Source: Clostridia bacterium (lineage in GTDB: Bacteria; Bacillota; Clostridia; Christensenellales; Aristaeellaceae). From it: DNA of 49,150 bases. Position numbers and translations under genes: made by a program. Below, piece by piece: positions 58 to 8,529 of this stretch. Positions within the stretch are counted from its first letter, which is position 1, and the number at the start of each line of letters is the position of its first letter. The notes under the pieces are model-generated. The model made no database searches. It worked only from the letters and a program-made list of their open reading frames with translations, and had not been told where the DNA came from. The stretch covers positions 1-49,150 of the forward strand of contig JAUNNK010000002.1 in the NCBI GenBank assembly GCA_030537335.1, given 5' to 3'.

Positions 58-132
<75 letters not shown>

Positions 133-2214: not shown

Positions 2215-2290
2215 CTGATCTCAAAGAAATGTTTTTCCTATAATTAAATGTTTTTCCCATAATTGTATTTTGCAATATCTATATTCTCTA

Positions 2291-2319
2291 TTGACTTTAA
2301 CACGGTACTGTGTTATAAT
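2291..2319 (+). promoter_or_regulatory. SigA-type promoter of the T-box operon
   Basis: TTGACT (2291-2296), a 17-nt spacer, then TATAAT (2314-2319) with a TGT extended -10. It lies in an AT-rich island. Confidence 0.6.
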
Positions 2320-2326
2320 GTGCAAA

Positions 2327-2584
2327 ACCTTTGATGGGAGATTTGTACATCCAAGCGGCATCAAGAGAGCTCGGGATGGTGGAAGCCGGGCTGCGTCAGC
2401 GGATATACGTGGGTCCCTGAGGGCGAGATGAACGGAGCGATCCCAGTAGTTGAGACGATTGATCCCCGTTACAGGATCGGGAATGTGATGGCATTTCCGT
2501 TGAGGCGGGCGCACACGCGCCAAGCAAGGTGGTACCGCAGGATTATCCCTGTCCTTGAACAAGCAAGGACAGGGTTTTTGTTTT
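2327..2584 (+). promoter_or_regulatory. T-box riboswitch leader (Stem I through terminator)
   Basis: K-turn CC-UUU-GA-U-GGGA (2328-2339) pairs with UCCC-U-GA-GG (2414-2422). AG bulge AAGAGA at 2363-2368. Distal hairpin GCUCGG-GAUGGUGGAAG-CCGGGC at 2369-2391. T-box sequence AAGGUGGUACCGCAG at 2526-2540. Terminator CCCTGTCCTTG/CAAGGACAGGG plus TTTTTGTTTT at 2547-2584. Confidence 0.8.
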
Positions 2585-2597
2585 GGGAGGGAACGCG

Positions 2598-2945
2598 ATG
2601 AACGACAGCTTTGAACTCTATGATCTAAAGGTCGAGGTGGTGGCCACAGATCGTCCGATGGTATGCGGCCATCACGCTGGAGATTACTTCCTGGCGCAGG
2701 GCGAAGACTTGGTTTTCCCGGATACCAACCGGTTTTCGATGTACGCGCTCGCGGCGCTGCTGCCGCTTCTGCCCGCAAAGCAGAGGCCGCTTCATCCAAA
2801 TGATTGGATGCGCTCCGACGCGCTGATCGCCTGTCCGGACCCCAACTGCGGGGCGCAATTCCGCATCACGCGCACGGGAGTGCGCACATTCAGACACGGG
2901 GAATGCACGGTTGTTCCCATACAGGAGGGTGAGAACCATGATTGA
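2598..2945 (+). CDS. Small Cys/His protein, TIGR04076-like (recalled family, unverified)
   Basis: ATG 2598 lies 6 nt after GGGAGGG. The 115-aa product reads FELYDLKVEVV..VCGHHAGDYF..ACPDPNCGAQFRITR. Its stop overlaps the next start. Confidence 0.6.
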   Translation: MNDSFELYDLKVEVVATDRPMVCGHHAGDYFLAQGEDLVFPDTNRFSMYALAALLPLLPAKQRPLHPNDWMRSDALIACPDPNCGAQFRITRTGVRTFRHGECTVVPIQEGENHD

Positions 2946-4005
2946 CAGGATCGACGCGGCGAGGATTACGCTGGACAACGGCTACAGCTTCAGCCGGGTG
3001 ATCAACGGCTGCTGGCAGCTTTCGGCGGAGCATTGCCTGCAGGGCAGGCTGGACATCGACGATGCCATTCACGCCTTTCACATGCTGAAGGAGCGGGGGC
3101 TGACCACCTTCGATTGCGCGGACATCTACACCGGCGTGGAGGAGATACTGGGCCGGTTCGTGTCAGAACTGAAGGCCATGGGCGGCTACAGCCACGACGA
3201 CATACAGATCCACACCAAATTCGTGCCGGACCTGAACCTGCTGGACCAGGTGAACTTCGCCTATACTGAAAAAGTGGTGGACCGCAGCCTGATGCGCATG
3301 GGCCGCGACTGCCTGGATCTGGTGCAGTTCCACTGGTGGGATTATGAGGTGCCGGGCATGATGGAGACCGCGTTTGATCTGGTGAAGCTCCAGCAGAAGG
3401 GCAAGATCCGCAACATCGCCATGTGCAATTACGATACGCCCCACCTGAAGCAGATGCTGGACGCGGGCATAAACATCGTGTCCAATCAGACCCAGTATTC
3501 CCTGTTCGATCGGCGGCCGGAGCGCGCGTTGCTGCAATTCTCCCGCGAGAACGACGTCTACTGCTTCTGCTACGGCACGCTGTCCGGCGGCCTGCTGGCG
3601 GAGCGGTGGATCGGTGCGAAGCAGGCGGATTTCGTGCCGGAGACCCGGTCCCATGTGAAGTATTTGCAGATCGTGGAGGATTCGCTGGGCTGGGATGGCT
3701 TCCAGAAGCTGCTGCTGCTGTTGAAGGACATCGCCGACGCCCACGGAGTGAGCATCTCCAACGTGGCGGCGAAATACATTCTGAACCAGCCTGGAGTGGG
3801 CGCTATCATGCTGGGATGCCGCAACAGCCGCCATGTGGAAGACAACGCCCGGGTAGCGGCGCTGCAATTGACCGACGCCGAAATGGACGCCATCCGCGGC
3901 TTTGTGTCCGCCTATCCCACCCCGGAGGGCGAGCCCTTCACCCTGGAGCGCACGCCAGGTTCCCGCTACCGCAATATCATGAAGATGAATCTCAACAAGG
4001 CGTGA
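2938..4005 (+). CDS. Aldo/keto reductase
   Basis: RBS AGGAGGGTGAG. AKR tetrad context is present: FDCADIYTG (D,Y), IHTKF (K), LVQFHWWD (H). Length is typical at 355 aa. Confidence 0.85.
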   Translation: MIDRIDAARITLDNGYSFSRVINGCWQLSAEHCLQGRLDIDDAIHAFHMLKERGLTTFDCADIYTGVEEILGRFVSELKAMGGYSHDDIQIHTKFVPDLNLLDQVNFAYTEKVVDRSLMRMGRDCLDLVQFHWWDYEVPGMMETAFDLVKLQQKGKIRNIAMCNYDTPHLKQMLDAGINIVSNQTQYSLFDRRPERALLQFSRENDVYCFCYGTLSGGLLAERWIGAKQADFVPETRSHVKYLQIVEDSLGWDGFQKLLLLLKDIADAHGVSISNVAAKYILNQPGVGAIMLGCRNSRHVEDNARVAALQLTDAEMDAIRGFVSAYPTPEGEPFTLERTPGSRYRNIMKMNLNKA

Positions 4006-4080
4006 GCCGCTGAACATCTTCGGCCCGCGGCCCTGTTTTGACCACAAAACCCAATGAACCCATGGAACAGGAGGATTATT

Positions 4081-5376
4081 ATGGCAACTCTGAGTCTTAT
4101 CGGCATTATCGTCGCCATCGCGGTCATGGTCTATGGCTGCATCAAGTCCGTCAACCTCGTGGTGCTCACCCCGATCTGCGCGCTCATCGTGGCGCTGACC
4201 GGCGGTATGTCCATCGTAGAGGGCTACGGCACCACTTACATGAACGGCATGGGCAGTTTCATTATCTCCCAATTCCCCGTGTTCCTGACCGGCGCGCTGT
4301 TCAGCAAGTTCCTGGAGGTCTCGGGTCTGAGCAAATCCATCGCGCTGTCGCTGTTCAAAAAGCTGGGCCGCAACAACATCGTGCTGGCCATGATCGTGTG
4401 CAACATCGTGCTGGCGGTGGCGGGCGTGAACACCTTTGTCATCATCTTCACCATCTTCCCCATTGCGCTGGCGCTGTTCAAGGAGGCTGATCTGCCCCGC
4501 AAGCTGATTCCGGCCTGCATACTGGGTCCCACGGTAGCGGCGTGCATGATCCCCGGCCTGCCCACCCTAAACAACACCATTCCCAGCTCGGCCTTCAATG
4601 TCACGGTGCTTGCGGCGCCGGTGCTGGGTTTCCTGGGCTTCATCCTGATGGCGGTGGGATCGATCCTGTACCTGAACCACGAGGCGAACAAGTGCCGGGC
4701 CCGGGGCGAGCACTTCGAGTCCATCCCTGGCGACGAGCGCTACCTGAGCGAATCGCTGGATGACGGCAACCTGCCCAACCCGCTGTTGGTGCTGATCCCG
4801 CTGGTGTTTGTCATCATCACGCTGAATGTATTCAAGTTCCCCGCCTGGGGCTCCCTGTTCTGCGGCAGTGTGATACTCGTTTGTATCTTCTACAAGAGCG
4901 TTCTGGGCAAGCTGAACACGAGCCTGACCGAGGCAGTGAAAAACTCCCAGGTCATCATCACCACTGCGGCCCTCAGCGGCTTCGGCACGGTGGTGGCGGC
5001 GGTGCCCGGCTATCAGCTGATCGCCGAGGGCCTGACGAAGGTCAGCTTCGGCAACCCCTACCTGTACACCATCATCGCCGTGGCGGTCATCGCAGCCATC
5101 TCCGGCTCGGCCTACGGCAGCATGCGCATCGCTTCCACGGCCATCGGCGAAAAGGTGCTGGCCCTGGGTGGCAACCCGCAGACCATCTCCCGCCTGATGA
5201 CAATGTCCTCCCTGTCCTTCGATTCGCTGCCCCACAACAGCGCCATCGTGCTGGTGCTGAACTACTGCGGCGTGTCCCACAAGGACGGCTATAAGTATCT
5301 GGGCGTCACCACGGTGCTGATGCCGCTGCTGGTGTCCATCCTTGGCGTCATACTGGGCACACTGGGCCTGTGCTGA
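4081..5376 (+). CDS. GntP-family (gluconate/acid-sugar type) permease
   Basis: RBS AGGAGG. The 431-aa polytopic membrane protein has a GntP-like N-terminus and a C-terminal SGSAYGSM..SLPHNSA region. Confidence 0.7.
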   Translation: MATLSLIGIIVAIAVMVYGCIKSVNLVVLTPICALIVALTGGMSIVEGYGTTYMNGMGSFIISQFPVFLTGALFSKFLEVSGLSKSIALSLFKKLGRNNIVLAMIVCNIVLAVAGVNTFVIIFTIFPIALALFKEADLPRKLIPACILGPTVAACMIPGLPTLNNTIPSSAFNVTVLAAPVLGFLGFILMAVGSILYLNHEANKCRARGEHFESIPGDERYLSESLDDGNLPNPLLVLIPLVFVIITLNVFKFPAWGSLFCGSVILVCIFYKSVLGKLNTSLTEAVKNSQVIITTAALSGFGTVVAAVPGYQLIAEGLTKVSFGNPYLYTIIAVAVIAAISGSAYGSMRIASTAIGEKVLALGGNPQTISRLMTMSSLSFDSLPHNSAIVLVLNYCGVSHKDGYKYLGVTTVLMPLLVSILGVILGTLGLC

Positions 5377-5389
5377 CGGGAGGGATTCC

Positions 5390-6163
5390 ATGCTGATCGA
5401 CATGCACGGTCACATCTTCCCGTCCAATCTGCAAAATGACAAGCGGGAGGTGCTGGAGACCATCGAACGCTATGGCATCGACCAAGTGTACCTGTCGGCC
5501 ATAGAGCTGACAAATCAGACCCCCAATGAGCGCGAGCTGGACGAGTGGAACGCCTGCCAATACGCCTTCGAGGCGGAACATCCGGACTGCATCCGCAGCT
5601 ACTGTCGGGTGTGCGTGCTGAACCGCAACGCCCGGGATGTGGCCCGGCGGGGCATATGGGACCACAACGCCGCGGGGCTCAAGCTGCTCAGCGAGGTGAC
5701 CTTTGACAGCCATCTGGCCGACCCCGTGATCGAGGAGGCCATCGCCGCCAATGTGCCGGTGCTGATCCACGCCTCCCACAAGGCGCCGGGTTCGCCCATG
5801 TATCCCAACGAATCCCACAGCGGCCACATTGCCGCGCTGGCGGCGCGGTATCCGGAGGCCAAGATCATCATGGCTCACACCGGCGGCAACGCCTACCGGG
5901 CCGTCAAGACGGTCAGGCCTTATCCCAACGTGGCCATCGACATCTCCGGCTCCCTGCTGCGCGCGGGCACGCTGGAGTACACCGTCGACCTGCTGGGGGT
6001 GGACCGGGTGGTGTTCGGCAGCGACTTCCCCTATGTGCCCCACGCCATCTGCATCGGCAAGGTGCAGGAGGCAAACATCACCGACGCGACCCGCGAGAAG
6101 ATCCTCGCCGGCAACGCACTGCGCCTCTTTGACCGGGGCTGGAAGGTGGGTGATCCGACGTGA
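5390..6163 (+). CDS. Amidohydrolase_2-type metal-dependent hydrolase (TIM barrel)
   Basis: RBS GGGAGGG. Contains N-terminal IDMHGH (HxH), internal IHASH and AHTGG, and VVFGSDFP Asp motifs. Confidence 0.75.
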   Translation: MLIDMHGHIFPSNLQNDKREVLETIERYGIDQVYLSAIELTNQTPNERELDEWNACQYAFEAEHPDCIRSYCRVCVLNRNARDVARRGIWDHNAAGLKLLSEVTFDSHLADPVIEEAIAANVPVLIHASHKAPGSPMYPNESHSGHIAALAARYPEAKIIMAHTGGNAYRAVKTVRPYPNVAIDISGSLLRAGTLEYTVDLLGVDRVVFGSDFPYVPHAICIGKVQEANITDATREKILAGNALRLFDRGWKVGDPT

Positions 6164-6939
6164 GCATCATCGATACCAATGTGTTCTATGGCAGGTGGCC
6201 CTTCCGAAACGCGGGCTTCGACGATATGGACCGCATCCGCGCCGTGTGTGACAAGAACGGTGTGGACGGCATGCTGGTGGCCAGCGTCCAGTCGATCTTC
6301 TACGAGGACCCCTTCGAGGCGGAGCTGGAGCTCCACCGACAGCTGGCGGGCAGGCGGGACGCCTGGCAGGTCTACACCGTCAACCCCCTGGCCGCCGGCT
6401 GGCGGGCGGACCTGGATGCCGCAGTGGACGCGTTCGGAATCAAGGCGGTCAAGATCTATCCGGGCTACCATCCCTACAGCCTGCAGGGCCCGGAGATCGC
6501 GAAGGTGTGCGAGGCGGCGGGGGAGCACAGCCTGCCGCTGATCGTGGCCGGCTGCGTGGAGGACGTGCGCGTCACCCACATGCTGCGCCAGGCGCCCCTG
6601 CCCGCGGACAGGCTGGGGGTGTTCTTGGGCACCTGGCGGGATGTGGACATCGTTCTGTCCAACCTGAGCTTCGGGGAAATCATGGCGCTCAAGCCGAATC
6701 TGCTGTCCCGGGACCGGGTGTATGTGGACATGGCGGGGCTCAAGTTCATCTCCTTCGCGGTGGAAAAGCTGTTGAAGGTCTATCCCGTGGAGATGCTGAT
6801 GTTCGGTTCACAGTGTCCGTTGTACGTGCAGCGCGGTATTCTCAACGAAGTCATCATGGAGGGACTTCCCGGTGCTGTGCAACAGGCTATCCTATACGAT
6901 AATGCATGCAGAGTATTCAATTTGAAGCACGATTGTTGA
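6160..6939 (+). CDS. Amidohydrolase-related protein with degenerate metal ligands
   Basis: The GTG start overlaps the previous stop (GTGA). The fold-level pattern matches the upstream gene, but HxH is replaced by IDTNVF and GSDFP by GSQCP. Confidence 0.6.
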   Translation: MSIIDTNVFYGRWPFRNAGFDDMDRIRAVCDKNGVDGMLVASVQSIFYEDPFEAELELHRQLAGRRDAWQVYTVNPLAAGWRADLDAAVDAFGIKAVKIYPGYHPYSLQGPEIAKVCEAAGEHSLPLIVAGCVEDVRVTHMLRQAPLPADRLGVFLGTWRDVDIVLSNLSFGEIMALKPNLLSRDRVYVDMAGLKFISFAVEKLLKVYPVEMLMFGSQCPLYVQRGILNEVIMEGLPGAVQQAILYDNACRVFNLKHDC

Positions 6940-7041
6940 TGAGGTGGTTGTTGCCAGTCTTCATGTTTGTTTTGCATTCGCTCTTCTTTCCATAGCAAGG
7001 AGGGAACGATGCCATCTGCCCCTGGAACACGTCCAAAGGCG

Positions 7042-7081
7042 CCCTGTCACTCGGCGAAAAACCGAGGGCAGGGTGTTTCTT
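7042..7081 (+). terminator. Probable terminator of the T-box operon
   Basis: Interrupted hairpin CCCTG..CTCGG-CGAAAAA-CCGAG..CAGGG followed by TGTTTCTT. Confidence 0.45.
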
Positions 7082-7090
7082 ATAAAAGGA

Positions 7091-7530
7091 TTATCGCACC
7101 TCCCTGATACGGGTGGGCAGTTCCCTTTTCCAGTCCATCCCTATGGGCAACGGCGGAATCCAGTGGATGACCATTTCACGGTTCTTTGAGGTTTGCGGGC
7201 CCGTCCAGTACCGGTGCCAGTGGGCGGAGCGGACGTGGAGCGGGATGAGGCGTGCTGCGTCCTACCCACCGTGCTTGCGGTGTATTTCCCTGCTTTGAAC
7301 GAACGGATTGCCCTGGGAACCCTCACGCCAACGTCTCAGACGTGCGGTTCCGAGGGCCCTCTGTATCCCCCGCTGACCCGACGGACGCTTCGCACAGGTC
7401 TTTCCATATCCGGCTCGTCGCTGCAGAGGTAAAGCAGAAGCTGCATCATTGACCCCACGGTGTAGCCATGTGTGAGGAGCTCGGTGACCTTCTGGGTGTA
7501 GGTGCGGCGGATGTCCTGCTTCTTCATGCT
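7091..7530 (-). pseudogene. Frameshifted mobile-element (ICE/phage-type) hypothetical gene
   Basis: Starts MKKQDIRRTYTQKVTELL..LLLYLCSDEPDM. Coherent protein text then continues in two other frames (..PRAIRSFKAG.. and ..HVRSAHWHRYWTGPQ..VIHWIPPLPIG..), ending at TAA 7091-7093. At least two frameshifts are needed. Confidence 0.5.
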
Positions 7531-7674
7531 GTGTTTCCTTTCCGGCCTGTAGGCCTGTCCGATTTGAAAGATTGTGTGCGGCTTCCCGCGACCCCTTTCG
7601 GGGTTTCGGCCCGGCGCCAAGGCGACAAGCCTGAGGCTTGTCGGTCTGCCTTTGGCAGACTACCGACGGCTCAA

Positions 7675-7821
7675 TCAGGGAATTGAGGCGCGGCACTCGA
7701 TGGTGCCCTTCTGCCACACCGCGTGGAGGTTGAGCAGGCGATGGCGGCTGCCGTCGTAGTTCTGGCTGGCGTGCCACTGCCAGTTGCTGGAGTCGTACCA
7801 AAGTCTCGCGAGGGCTTCCAT
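7675..7821 (-). other. Small 48-aa ORF of mobile-element flavour (MEALARLWYDSSNWQWHASQNYDG..)
   Basis: Protein-like composition lies inside the relic region, upstream of the frameshifted gene on the same strand. I recognise no family. Confidence 0.25.
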
Positions 7822-7855
7822 GGTCTGGGACTTGGTGAGGTTCAGCCGGGTGAGG

Positions 7856-8095
7856 AAGATCGAAATGCATCCGGGAAACCGGGTGCTGTTTGTTTTCCGG
7901 GATGGCCATGCGGAGGAGAACTTCTGGAAGGATCGCTCTCGCAGGGACAGCTGGGATGCAGAGAAGCGCAAAAGGGCCGCTGAAAAAACGAGGGCACAGC
8001 GCCAGAGAGGAAAGGAGAACCCAGAACAATGCGTGAAGGGAGCTGAACAACGCGGAGATCCCGTGCCCCTCCCGAAAGGGTCTTTGTCGGCGTGA
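7856..8095 (+). pseudogene. Serine-recombinase C-terminal tail fragment
   Basis: KIEMHPGNRVLFVFRDGHAEENFWKDRSRRDSWDAEKRKRAAEK resembles the extreme C-terminus of clostridial large serine recombinases. No upstream catalytic part is present. Confidence 0.5.
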
Positions 8096-8529
8096 TGCAG
8101 AGGATATTGCAGGAGAAGAATGAAATCCTGGTAGCCTGCCGCGCGGCACTGGATGCGGTATTCGATACCATTGAACTAGACCGGGCTGCAAAGCGGCTGG
8201 AGGAACAGGCGCTGGGAATTGCGGAGCGCGTGCGAAAGCTGGTGGAGGAAAACATGCGGGTGCAGATGAATCAGGAGGAATATCATCAGGAATACAATGC
8301 GCTGGCTGAAGATTATGAAAAAGCCAGCGAGAAGCGCCGGAGGCTTGCAGAGCAAAAGCAGGATAAGGCGGATCGCAGGCGAAAGATTGAGATTTTCCTC
8401 CGGATGCTGGAGCAGCAGGATGAATGCCTGGAGTTCGATCCATACACCTTTGTGGAGCTGGTGGATAAAGTGGACGTTGGGAAGGACAAGAAGCTGGTGT
8501 TTTATTCCAGGGGTGGGATGAATTATTGA
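8092..8529 (+). pseudogene. Serine-recombinase C-terminal (coiled-coil plus tail) fragment
   Basis: ..NQEEYHQEYNALAEDYEKASEKRRRLAEQKQDKADRRRKIEIFLRMLEQQDECLEFDPYTFVELVDKVDVGKDKKLVFYSRGG is the typical coiled-coil/terminal beta region. The resolvase, recombinase and zinc-ribbon domains are absent. Confidence 0.7.

Follow-up and report, generated by a model that had tools for sequence, protein, structure and literature searches.

Tryptophan-specific T-box riboswitches have been described upstream of trpXYZ in Streptococcus suis, where the T-box was tested experimentally (PMC9382623), and upstream of trpS and rtpA-ycbK in Bacillus subtilis. In RegPrecise, the Trp T-box regulon comprises trpS, trpEGDCFBA, trpB2, trpP, trpXYZ, rtpA-ycbK, yhdH, oppA, and mtnN-trpS (PMC3766115 Table S2). 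The locus studied here lies in a 49,150-nucleotide stretch of DNA from a Clostridia bacterium (assembly GCA_030537335.1, contig JAUNNK010000002.1, positions 1 to 49,150), the whole of which is called the window below. On its forward strand, a T-box leader at 2322-2584 is followed by five genes encoding a TIGR04076-family protein, an aldo-keto reductase (AKR), a GntP-like permease, and two Amidohydro_2 proteins. With the Trp T-boxes of S. suis trpXYZ and of B. subtilis trpS and rtpA-ycbK, the leader shares the K-turn of Stem I, a UGG specifier followed by a purine, the AG bulge, the distal loop, Stem II, the IIA/B pseudoknot, Stem III, a UGGN bulge, a competing terminator, and the expected induction by uncharged tRNA-Trp. 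It differs from the canonical Trp T-boxes in its cargo, in the lack of the GAA S-turn, in an extra hairpin between the IIA/B pseudoknot and Stem III, and in a score under the Rfam gathering threshold. The cargo of the window was not found in the RegPrecise Trp T-box list (PMC3766115 Table S2). The riboswitch is a variant within a well-known class, and what makes the locus interesting is its cargo.

Two other described systems resemble parts of the locus. In the T-box transporter operons of Wels et al. 2008, carriers of the NhaC family were found under Tyr T-boxes only (PMC2494555); the operons related to the present one likewise have a T-box before an NhaC carrier and an expected uptake when the tRNA is uncharged, but in them the TIGR04076-AKR pair always accompanies the carrier, the specificity is for Trp rather than Tyr, and the window adds a two-subunit amidohydrolase. 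The characterised Amidohydro_2 enzymes (ACMSD, LigW, IDCase, and gamma-resorcylate decarboxylase) belong to a family with a metal-dependent TIM-barrel fold, whose ligand pattern HxH...H...H...D is kept in the first amidohydrolase of the window (subunit A). In contrast to these enzymes, subunit A is always paired with a ligand-less paralogue (subunit B), and it scores only 32 bits to its nearest solved relatives, the ACMSD-type decarboxylases, over the C-terminal 64 residues only. Such a pairing is not known among the characterised members. A third system, the trp leader-peptide attenuators (E. coli trpL and the actinobacterial WWW type), resembles a single relative of the locus, L041, and not the window itself. 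The literature searched contained no account of such a gene set being controlled by a tRNA, as the original prediction had supposed. TIGR04076 was mentioned in two papers, neither with functional data, and no relevant work linked T-boxes, tryptophan, aldo-keto reductases, and NhaC, although an automatic listing may exist elsewhere.

The specifier codon of a T-box names the amino acid that is served, and few other features predict the function of unknown bacterial genes as reliably. The explanation that we favour, and hold to be probable, is that positions 2291 to about 7083 form one transcription unit under a class-I tRNA-Trp T-box, with a composite cargo devoted to Trp-related salvage. The leader contained the following elements.

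2291..2319, forward strand: sigma-70-type promoter, TTGACT-17-TATAAT, TG-extended, 11 of 12 matches in the consensus scan
2325..2424, forward strand: T-box Stem I by Rfam alignment, 95 bits with the covariance model R1
2328-2339 / 2414-2422, forward strand: K-turn halves CC-UUU-GA-U-GGGA / UCCC-U-GA-GG within Stem I
2363-2368, forward strand: AG bulge AAGAGA within Stem I
2369-2391, forward strand: distal hairpin GCUCGG / GAUGGUGGAAG / CCGGGC, the distal helix and loop of Stem I
2410..2413, forward strand: specifier UGG (2410-2412) and purine G2413, directly 5' of the closing helix UCCC
2425..2521, forward strand: Stem II region by Rfam alignment and family alignment
2455-2458 / 2466-2469, forward strand: Stem IIA, in the Stem II region
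2461-2464 / 2475-2478, forward strand: IIB pseudoknot, in the Stem II region
2480-2485 / 2492-2497, forward strand: extra, subfamily-specific hairpin, stem GGAAUG/CAUUUC and loop UGAUGG
2508-2512 / 2517-2521, forward strand: Stem III, in the Stem II region
2526-2540, forward strand: T-box sequence AAGGUGGUACCGCAG, read from the sequence
2526..2556, forward strand: antiterminator by Rfam alignment, helices 2526-2529 / 2553-2556 and 2537-2541 / 2548-2552
2530-2536, forward strand: 7-nt T-box bulge UGGUACC in the antiterminator, of which UGGU (2530-2533) would pair with the tRNA 3' NCCA
2547..2584, forward strand: intrinsic terminator, 11-bp stem 2547-2557 / 2564-2574 and then the U tract TTTTTGTTTT
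2586-2592, forward strand: ribosome-binding site GGGAGGG ahead of the ATG at 2598

The promoter, K-turn, AG bulge, distal hairpin, T-box sequence, terminator, and ribosome-binding site on which the original prediction relied were all found where it had placed them. Between 2000 and 7400, 2291-2319 was the only promoter-like site of the forward strand in the consensus scan, and 2547-2574 was the only terminator-like site flagged by a simple scanner. The leader as a whole (2322-2584) was of the transcriptional type. The 5' arm of the terminator (2547-2557) overlaps the 3' strand of the antiterminator (2548-2556), so that the two structures are mutually exclusive, which is the classical design.

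As aligned to the Rfam model, the specifier loop read UACGUGGG on its 3' side, followed by the closing helix UCCC. By the TBDB rule, which takes nucleotides 2-4 counted from the 3' end of the bulge (PMC7778990), this gives UGG followed by G2413, and the codon is therefore that of Trp. The UGG columns were invariant in 30 of 30 aligned homologous Stem I leaders, and UGG with a following purine was present in 41 of 43 hits of the model-based alignment. The leaders of Gracilibacillus and Radiobacillus, which lie above the Rfam gathering score, had the canonical GAA-UGG-G. The alternative specifier frames GUG, GGG, and CGU were ruled out because UGG alone was invariant across the family. The fourth base of the UGGN bulge was U or C throughout the family, which is typical of Trp T-boxes according to TBDB (PMC7778990). 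The UGGU of the window would pair with A73 or wobble with a G73 discriminator, the latter being the case in 46% of the Trp T-boxes in TBDB (PMC7778990); the sole tRNA in the window (58-129) has the anticodon GUU. The leader is thus very probably a T-box and a reader of tRNA-Trp.

The T-box architecture was mapped onto two alignments, one of 30 leaders for Stem I and one of 25 leaders for the 3' domain, and the paired cells were counted. In Stem I, 89.3% of the cells were paired and 19 of 23 pairs were compensatory; none of 500 shuffles was as high, and slid controls gave 32-48%. The 3' domain overall was 97.4% paired with 16 of 28 pairs compensatory, against 30-43% in its slid controls, which also serve for its parts: the IIB pseudoknot helix (93.9%; 4 of 4 compensatory), the extra hairpin (95.3%; 5 of 6), Stem III (99.2%; 4 of 5), and the antiterminator (100% in 25 leaders; 2 of 9). 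The terminator was 98.2% paired in 25 leaders with 4 of 11 pairs compensatory, and its slid controls gave 29-56%. Stem I, IIA/B, Stem III, the antiterminator, and the terminator all have support in the family, most of them by covariation. The extra hairpin between the IIA/B pseudoknot and Stem III does not occur in the Rfam T-box consensus and was present in about 25 homologous leaders.

When 2200-2650 was scanned in a sensitive mode, RF00230 matched 2322-2559 with 68.6 bits (E=6.6e-15), the curated gathering score being 93 bits. The original prediction had agreed to be judged by this comparison: the score indeed fell below the threshold, but the match covered the full length of the model (1-219), and the sister leaders L092, L094, and L079 likewise scored 67-69 bits. 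At the gathering threshold, the Rfam scan of the window reported no T-box, a tRNA being the sole element, and 2 of 8 T-box-bearing loci were reported. Homologous leaders of Gracilibacillus and Paenibacillus reached 133 and 96 bits. The shortfall was due partly to the conserved inserted hairpin at 2480-2497 and partly to the tightened specifier loop in the window, L092, and L094. In the window this loop has GAUUU on its 5' side and G-UGG-G on its 3' side, the S-turn AGUA/GAA is absent, and an extra G-C pair replaces the S-turn GA; L092 and L094 have the same arrangement; at this place AGUU/GAG occurs in most relatives and the canonical GAA in the Gracilibacillus type. The sub-threshold score is a trait of the Clostridial subfamily and not a sign of decay, and the RNA conforms to a T-box in all structural respects tested, save the curated score and the S-turn. 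As the subfamily scores below the gathering threshold, leaders of this kind are missed by routine Rfam annotation and by the regulon reconstructions derived from it.

The genes behind the leader and the probable end of the operon were as follows.

2598..2945, forward strand: TIGR04076-family protein, 115 aa, NCBIfam 67.1 bits (cut-off 33), model 2-90 of 91
2938..4005, forward strand: AKR, 355 aa, PF00248, 209 bits, profile 2-288 of 291
4054..5376, forward strand: GntP-like permease of the ion-transporter superfamily, PF02447; the alternative start 4081 gives 431 aa
5390..6163, forward strand: Amidohydro_2 subunit A, PF04909, 80 bits; HxH, HASH, AHTGG, and GSDFP intact
6160..6939, forward strand: Amidohydro_2 subunit B, a paralogue, 46 bits; without HxH and the GSDFP Asp
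7042..7083, forward strand: probable operon terminator, a 12-bp GC-rich hairpin CCCUGUCACUCGG...CCGAGGGCAGGG and then UGUUUCUUAU

These assignments agree with those made earlier (TIGR04076, Aldo_ket_red, GntP_permease, and twice Amidohydro_2), for the permease in the N-terminal half only. The five genes are co-oriented and are separated in order by an 8-nt overlap, 48-75 nt, 13 nt, and a 4-nt overlap; the overlaps noticed earlier at 2938-2945 and 6160-6163 are real. The consensus scan found no promoter-like or terminator-like site inside 2598-6939. The hairpin at 7042-7083 lies about 100 nt past the last stop codon and has a U-rich tail, and was not flagged by the simple scanner. In GC content (0.60-0.63) the operon matches the remainder of the window. 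All five genes are likely to be co-regulated. The idea of a five-gene unit was borne out by the tight packing and by its conservation in at least two lineages, those of the window and of the metagenomic contig L092; it is not one ancestral unit, however, and is made up of two modules.

The first module is the TIGR04076-AKR pair. The invariant residues of the TIGR04076 protein include C23, H25, C79, C84, and H100, and these Cys and His residues suggest a metal site. Its relatives showed 62-88% identity across several phyla, and the database held 4,842 clusters at E<=1e-5, the best 120 of which were all at least 70% identical. The AlphaFold model had a pLDDT of 82. When it was compared with the PDB by Foldseek, no significant fold neighbour was found (best E=0.5); XdhC-like proteins were considered as fold relatives and rejected (TM about 0.44, E=0.5, not significant), and a sequence search of the PDB gave chance-level matches only. 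In the AKR, the tetrad D59, Y64, K94, and H132 could be read in the motifs FDCADIY, HTKF, and QFHWWD. Its best solved relative scored merely 81 bits, and the nearest NCBIfam models, methylglyoxal reductase and L-glyceraldehyde-3-phosphate reductase, were both matched far under their cut-offs.

Scanning for TIGR04076 in one genome per GTDB species gave 80 loci, which span Bacilli, Clostridia, Erysipelotrichia, Coriobacteriaceae, Proteobacteria, Acidobacteriota, Gemmatimonadota and, in a few cases, bins that carry the label Bacteroidales. An AKR match adjoined the TIGR04076 gene in 77 of them, immediately downstream in nearly all, and clustering of the neighbouring open reading frames (ORFs) gave the NhaC-family carrier (PF03553) as the third recurrent gene (44 loci). 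The T-box core AAnnAAGGUGG(U/C)ACCGCAGG was present upstream of the pair operon in 35 of the 80 loci, in Clostridia and in Bacilli such as Neobacillus, Paenibacillus, Gracilibacillus, and Radiobacillus, in the orders T-box-TIGR04076-AKR-NhaC or T-box-NhaC-TIGR04076-AKR. Beyond the 80 loci, a T-box also stood upstream of the pair in the window, L092, L093, and L094. The Stem I covariance model recovered the same T-boxes as a loosened sequence pattern; a strict T-box regular expression missed the element of the window. Judged from these gene orders, the association of the T-box with the TIGR04076-AKR(-NhaC) operon is an old one in both Bacilli and Clostridia. The statement that it controls genes outside the synthetases, biosynthesis genes, and lone transporters was correct, and the linkage proved more general than had been thought, being widespread and not a one-off.

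Some further features were seen near the pair. A T-box at L079:2721-2966 scored 90 bits to Rfam and read GAA-GAC-C by eye, which would suggest Asp. Another at L093:1764-1863 was found with the Stem I model only (41 bits) and had a non-Trp specifier region, GAG or AGG. In Bacillus niameyensis (L022 / L024, NZ_LN831197.1, about 1.88-1.90 Mb), the TIGR04076-AKR region occurred as a tandem repeat array that includes truncated copies of the AKR and in which genes of the flanks recur (clusters c5, c10, c11, and c12); no T-box was detected in it.

The second module consists of the permease and subunits A and B. The permease matched PF02447 with 37 bits (cut-off 22.5) in its N-terminal half only (profile 2-237 of 440), and it matched the NCBIfam gntP model (TIGR00791) with 28.5 bits, where the cut-off is 293. 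The acidic precursor proposed for the pathway, which has this weak GntP match as its basis, is no more than possible, as NhaC, NSS, or EamA proteins fill the same position in other lineages. The family of subunit A is rare (26 clusters). The loss of the HxH motif and of the GSDFP Asp from subunit B, pointed out in the original prediction, is real, and this degenerate state was shared by all relatives, even where the A subunits were only 35% identical. The adjacency of A and B held in every context examined. Subunit B is a member of Amidohydro_2 by its sequence and is probably non-catalytic, and A and B together look like a conserved enzyme made of one catalytic and one non-catalytic chain.

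Close relatives of this module were found in operons of the order RidA - permease - A - B - class I aminotransferase (76% identity for A), located at L002:8219-13230 and L006:8254-13520 in a Clostridia-like metagenome bin and a Treponema genome; the permease of the window was 81% identical to those of the loci L002-L005 of this type. A YheO-like PAS_6/HTH_22 regulator and a tautomerase gene lie nearby, the latter in L002 being of the 4-oxalocrotonate-tautomerase family. No T-box or other Rfam element was found in the RidA-type operons, which look like a catabolic route for an amino-acid derivative. More distant relatives of A and B occur with sugar-type enzymes. The module stood beside TIGR04076-AKR in none of the 80 GTDB loci. 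The comparison of neighbourhoods recommended earlier thus gave a divided answer: the T-box co-occurs with TIGR04076-AKR, whereas the permease and the amidohydrolases are found elsewhere with another regulator and no T-box. The original prediction was to be abandoned if orthologous operons had a well-characterised function and a different regulator; a different regulator (PAS_6/HTH_22) was found for part of the operon, but those orthologues are not characterised in function.

The leader and the five genes of contig L092 aligned to window 2288-6861 with 83.4% nucleotide identity. There, the operon is flanked by a KDPG-aldolase gene upstream and a STAS-domain gene downstream, with no recombinases. 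The AKRs closest to that of the window (81-85% identity) have NhaC downstream. The simplest history is that the permease and A/B replaced the NhaC gene, here and in L092. In L079 (Oscillospiraceae), the order is Trp T-box - TIGR04076 - Amidohydro_1 - GntP-like permease - AKR; the Amidohydro_1 enzyme resembles Xaa-Pro dipeptidase, and the permease is 41% identical to that of the window. This independent insertion of a hydrolase and a permease parallels that in the window.

Other neighbours also connect the pair to tryptophan. Next to the pair in L087 is a second, canonical Trp T-box, which drives an ABC transporter with a binding protein of PF04392, the TrpX family. Downstream of the pair in L062 come an M32 carboxypeptidase, an Amidohydro_1 protein, and then a Trp T-box ahead of an OppA-like binding protein. 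RegPrecise includes both trpXYZ and oppA among the targets of Trp T-boxes (PMC3766115 Table S2). In L020 and L031 the pair had M20 and M24 peptidases and an ABC system around it, in L027 the AKR preceded a beta-lactamase-fold hydrolase, and in L040 and L044 an EamA protein took the carrier position. In three proteobacterial loci the carrier was an NSS protein with 274 bits to PDB 4us3, which is MhsT, a hydrophobic amino-acid transporter solved with L-Trp.

In a metagenome-assembled genome of the Coriobacteriaceae (L041:43-321, CACZRK010000173.1), the pair was preceded by a leader-peptide attenuator, with no T-box upstream. It comprises a promoter (TTGACA-16-CATAAT), a ribosome-binding site, a leader ORF of 27 codons (MVRTQGWWWRDA...) with TGG TGG TGG at 194-202, and a GC-rich hairpin followed by U8. 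Folding of the RNA gave the 1:2 / 2:3 / 3:4 logic, in which the Trp-codon segment pairs with GUCCGG; when this segment was masked, GUCCGG paired with CCGGAC in the 5' arm of the terminator. Across the whole L041 contig, TGGTGGTGG was expected 0.02 times by chance. This attenuator would be a second, independent Trp-sensing device on the same pair and is the most telling link between the pair and tryptophan. When metagenomes were scanned with the L041 protein, only relatives of 62-82% identity were obtained, none with a comparable tandem-Trp attenuator; a short ORF in one of these loci, L166, has WW.

Two further sites near the pair recall elements of trp regulation. A short ORF with SYWWRPS lies upstream of NhaC-TIGR04076-AKR in the betaproteobacterium Sutterella seckii (L078:5284-5420); no clear terminator or antiterminator was resolved there, and a Trp attenuator is possible. 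The E. coli trpL peptide ends in ...GWWRTS. In Leminorella grimontii, a TrpR operator was considered at L045:5500-5520, between a divergent gene and the NhaC-TIGR04076-AKR operon, and was rejected; only the half-site GTACTAGTT is there, identical to half of the consensus operator of E. coli TrpR, and the second half is mismatched.

From these observations, the locus would operate as follows. Transcription would start at the near-consensus promoter, and Stem I would capture tRNA-Trp through pairing of UGG (2410-2412) with the anticodon CCA and through the distal-loop platform. When the tRNA-Trp is uncharged, its 3' NCCA would pair with UGGU (2530-2533) and stabilise the antiterminator, which would block the 2547-2574 terminator and allow read-through; when it is charged, the terminator would form and transcription would halt at the U tract. 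The cargo expressed upon Trp starvation would consist of the TIGR04076 protein and the AKR, which are the ancestral partners of the T-box and are normally followed by an NhaC-type carrier, and of the GntP-like permease and the two-subunit Amidohydro_2 enzyme in place of NhaC. The permease may then import a Trp-related compound, which amidohydrolase A/B may hydrolyse, decarboxylate, or otherwise release, and the TIGR04076 protein and the AKR may perform a conserved redox step leading to a compound usable as tryptophan or instead of it. Import and conversion that yield or spare an amino acid, as originally proposed, agree with the comparative evidence, which now points to tryptophan as that amino acid. 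The chances that the operon serves supply or salvage are about even, and confidence in any specific chemistry is low.

Several observations weigh against this explanation. For the leader, they are the RF00230 score under the cut-off and the missing S-turn. For the pair, about half of the loci, including several Firmicutes, had no detectable T-box, none of the loci examined had trp biosynthesis genes beside it, the WWW attenuator is one case and was not replicated, and the TIGR04076 protein is without a detectable fold relative in the PDB. For the second module, the native context with RidA, aminotransferase, and tautomerase looks catabolic. We also see no evident place for a reductase in any tryptophan route known to us. 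The low score and a specifier loop shorter than in canonical leaders could indicate that the T-box has decayed and is non-functional, the genes being constitutive or silent. This is highly improbable, for the helices are all intact, the terminator and antiterminator are fully complementary, L092 and L094 keep the architecture with compensatory changes, and the low score comes mostly from the inserted hairpin, which is conserved and common to the whole Clostridial subfamily.

By another explanation, the T-box would govern the pair only and the permease and amidohydrolases would be an unrelated catabolic module with an unrecognised promoter of its own. It agrees with the occurrence of the module elsewhere at 76-81% identity without a T-box and with RidA, an aminotransferase, and the PAS_6/HTH_22 regulator, with the AKR-permease gap of 48-75 nt, and with the decayed recombinase genes and the tRNA gene that flank the locus in the window, as is typical of a recombination hot spot. 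We consider it unlikely, given that the gap contains no promoter-like or terminator-like site, that L092 has the same junction and gene order at 83% identity in another neighbourhood free of recombinases, that the module occupies the exact position of NhaC in the closest relatives, and that a hydrolase and a GntP-like permease were inserted in parallel between TIGR04076 and the AKR in the T-box operon of L079. The operon might instead be a stress or detoxification response to Trp starvation, in which the AKR would act on reactive aldehydes or 2-oxo compounds accumulating under disturbed Trp metabolism, or Trp analogues that interfere with the charging of tRNA-Trp would be inactivated. AKRs are typical carbonyl detoxifiers, and the nearest NCBIfam models, although under cut-off, are of this kind (methylglyoxal and L-glyceraldehyde-3-phosphate reductases); no step in Trp biosynthesis or salvage is known to need an AKR, and EamA proteins, which replace the carrier in L040 and L044, are often exporters. 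Such a response is nonetheless improbable in view of the recurrence of the pair with uptake-type carriers (NSS, NhaC, and ABC systems with binding proteins) and with peptidases and amidohydrolases, and of the known T-box regulons, whose functions are overwhelmingly those of supply (PMC3766115 Table S2). A single Trp-responsive operon with composite cargo for Trp-related salvage remains the explanation that we prefer.

A wider proposal can be made only tentatively, at somewhat less than even chances. The TIGR04076 protein and the AKR may be the core of an unrecognised and widespread pathway of Trp salvage or acquisition in Bacilli, Clostridia, Coriobacteriia, Proteobacteria, Acidobacteriota, and Gemmatimonadota, which would use lineage-specific carriers and hydrolases and be placed under two unrelated Trp-sensing RNA devices; the window would hold a rare version with a permease and a two-subunit amidohydrolase. 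The specifier codon links TIGR04076, a family with thousands of members, and its dedicated reductase to Trp supply and so provides a lead to their function; further support for this link comes from another phylum, where the pair has a Trp attenuator of a different kind. If true, this might be a new tryptophan route. Gut and rumen samples are the source of many genomes that bear the pair, and competition in the gut for tryptophan and indole derivatives may be important to the host.

The locus lies in a recombination-scarred region of the window. Upstream, at 1248-2214, there is a frameshifted gene for a large serine recombinase, with Resolvase and Zn_ribbon_recom domains spread over three frames. 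Downstream, the 1.15 kb between the operon and the next recombinase remnant (6940-8090) contained no convincing gene; the remnant at 8092-8529 is a C-terminal recombinase fragment with 24.5% identity to the upstream one, beyond which lie TrkA/TrkH genes. Insertion of the operon into one recombinase gene was ruled out, as remnants of 24.5% identity represent different genes. L092 carries the operon without recombination scars, so that the operon as such has no tie to a mobile element. Positions 1-900 of the window have a GC content of 0.40, compared with about 0.60 elsewhere, and contain a tRNA-Asn gene (58-129, anticodon GUU). This low-GC segment and its tRNA-Asn gene are possibly the integration site of a decayed element, which the recombinase remnants would mark.

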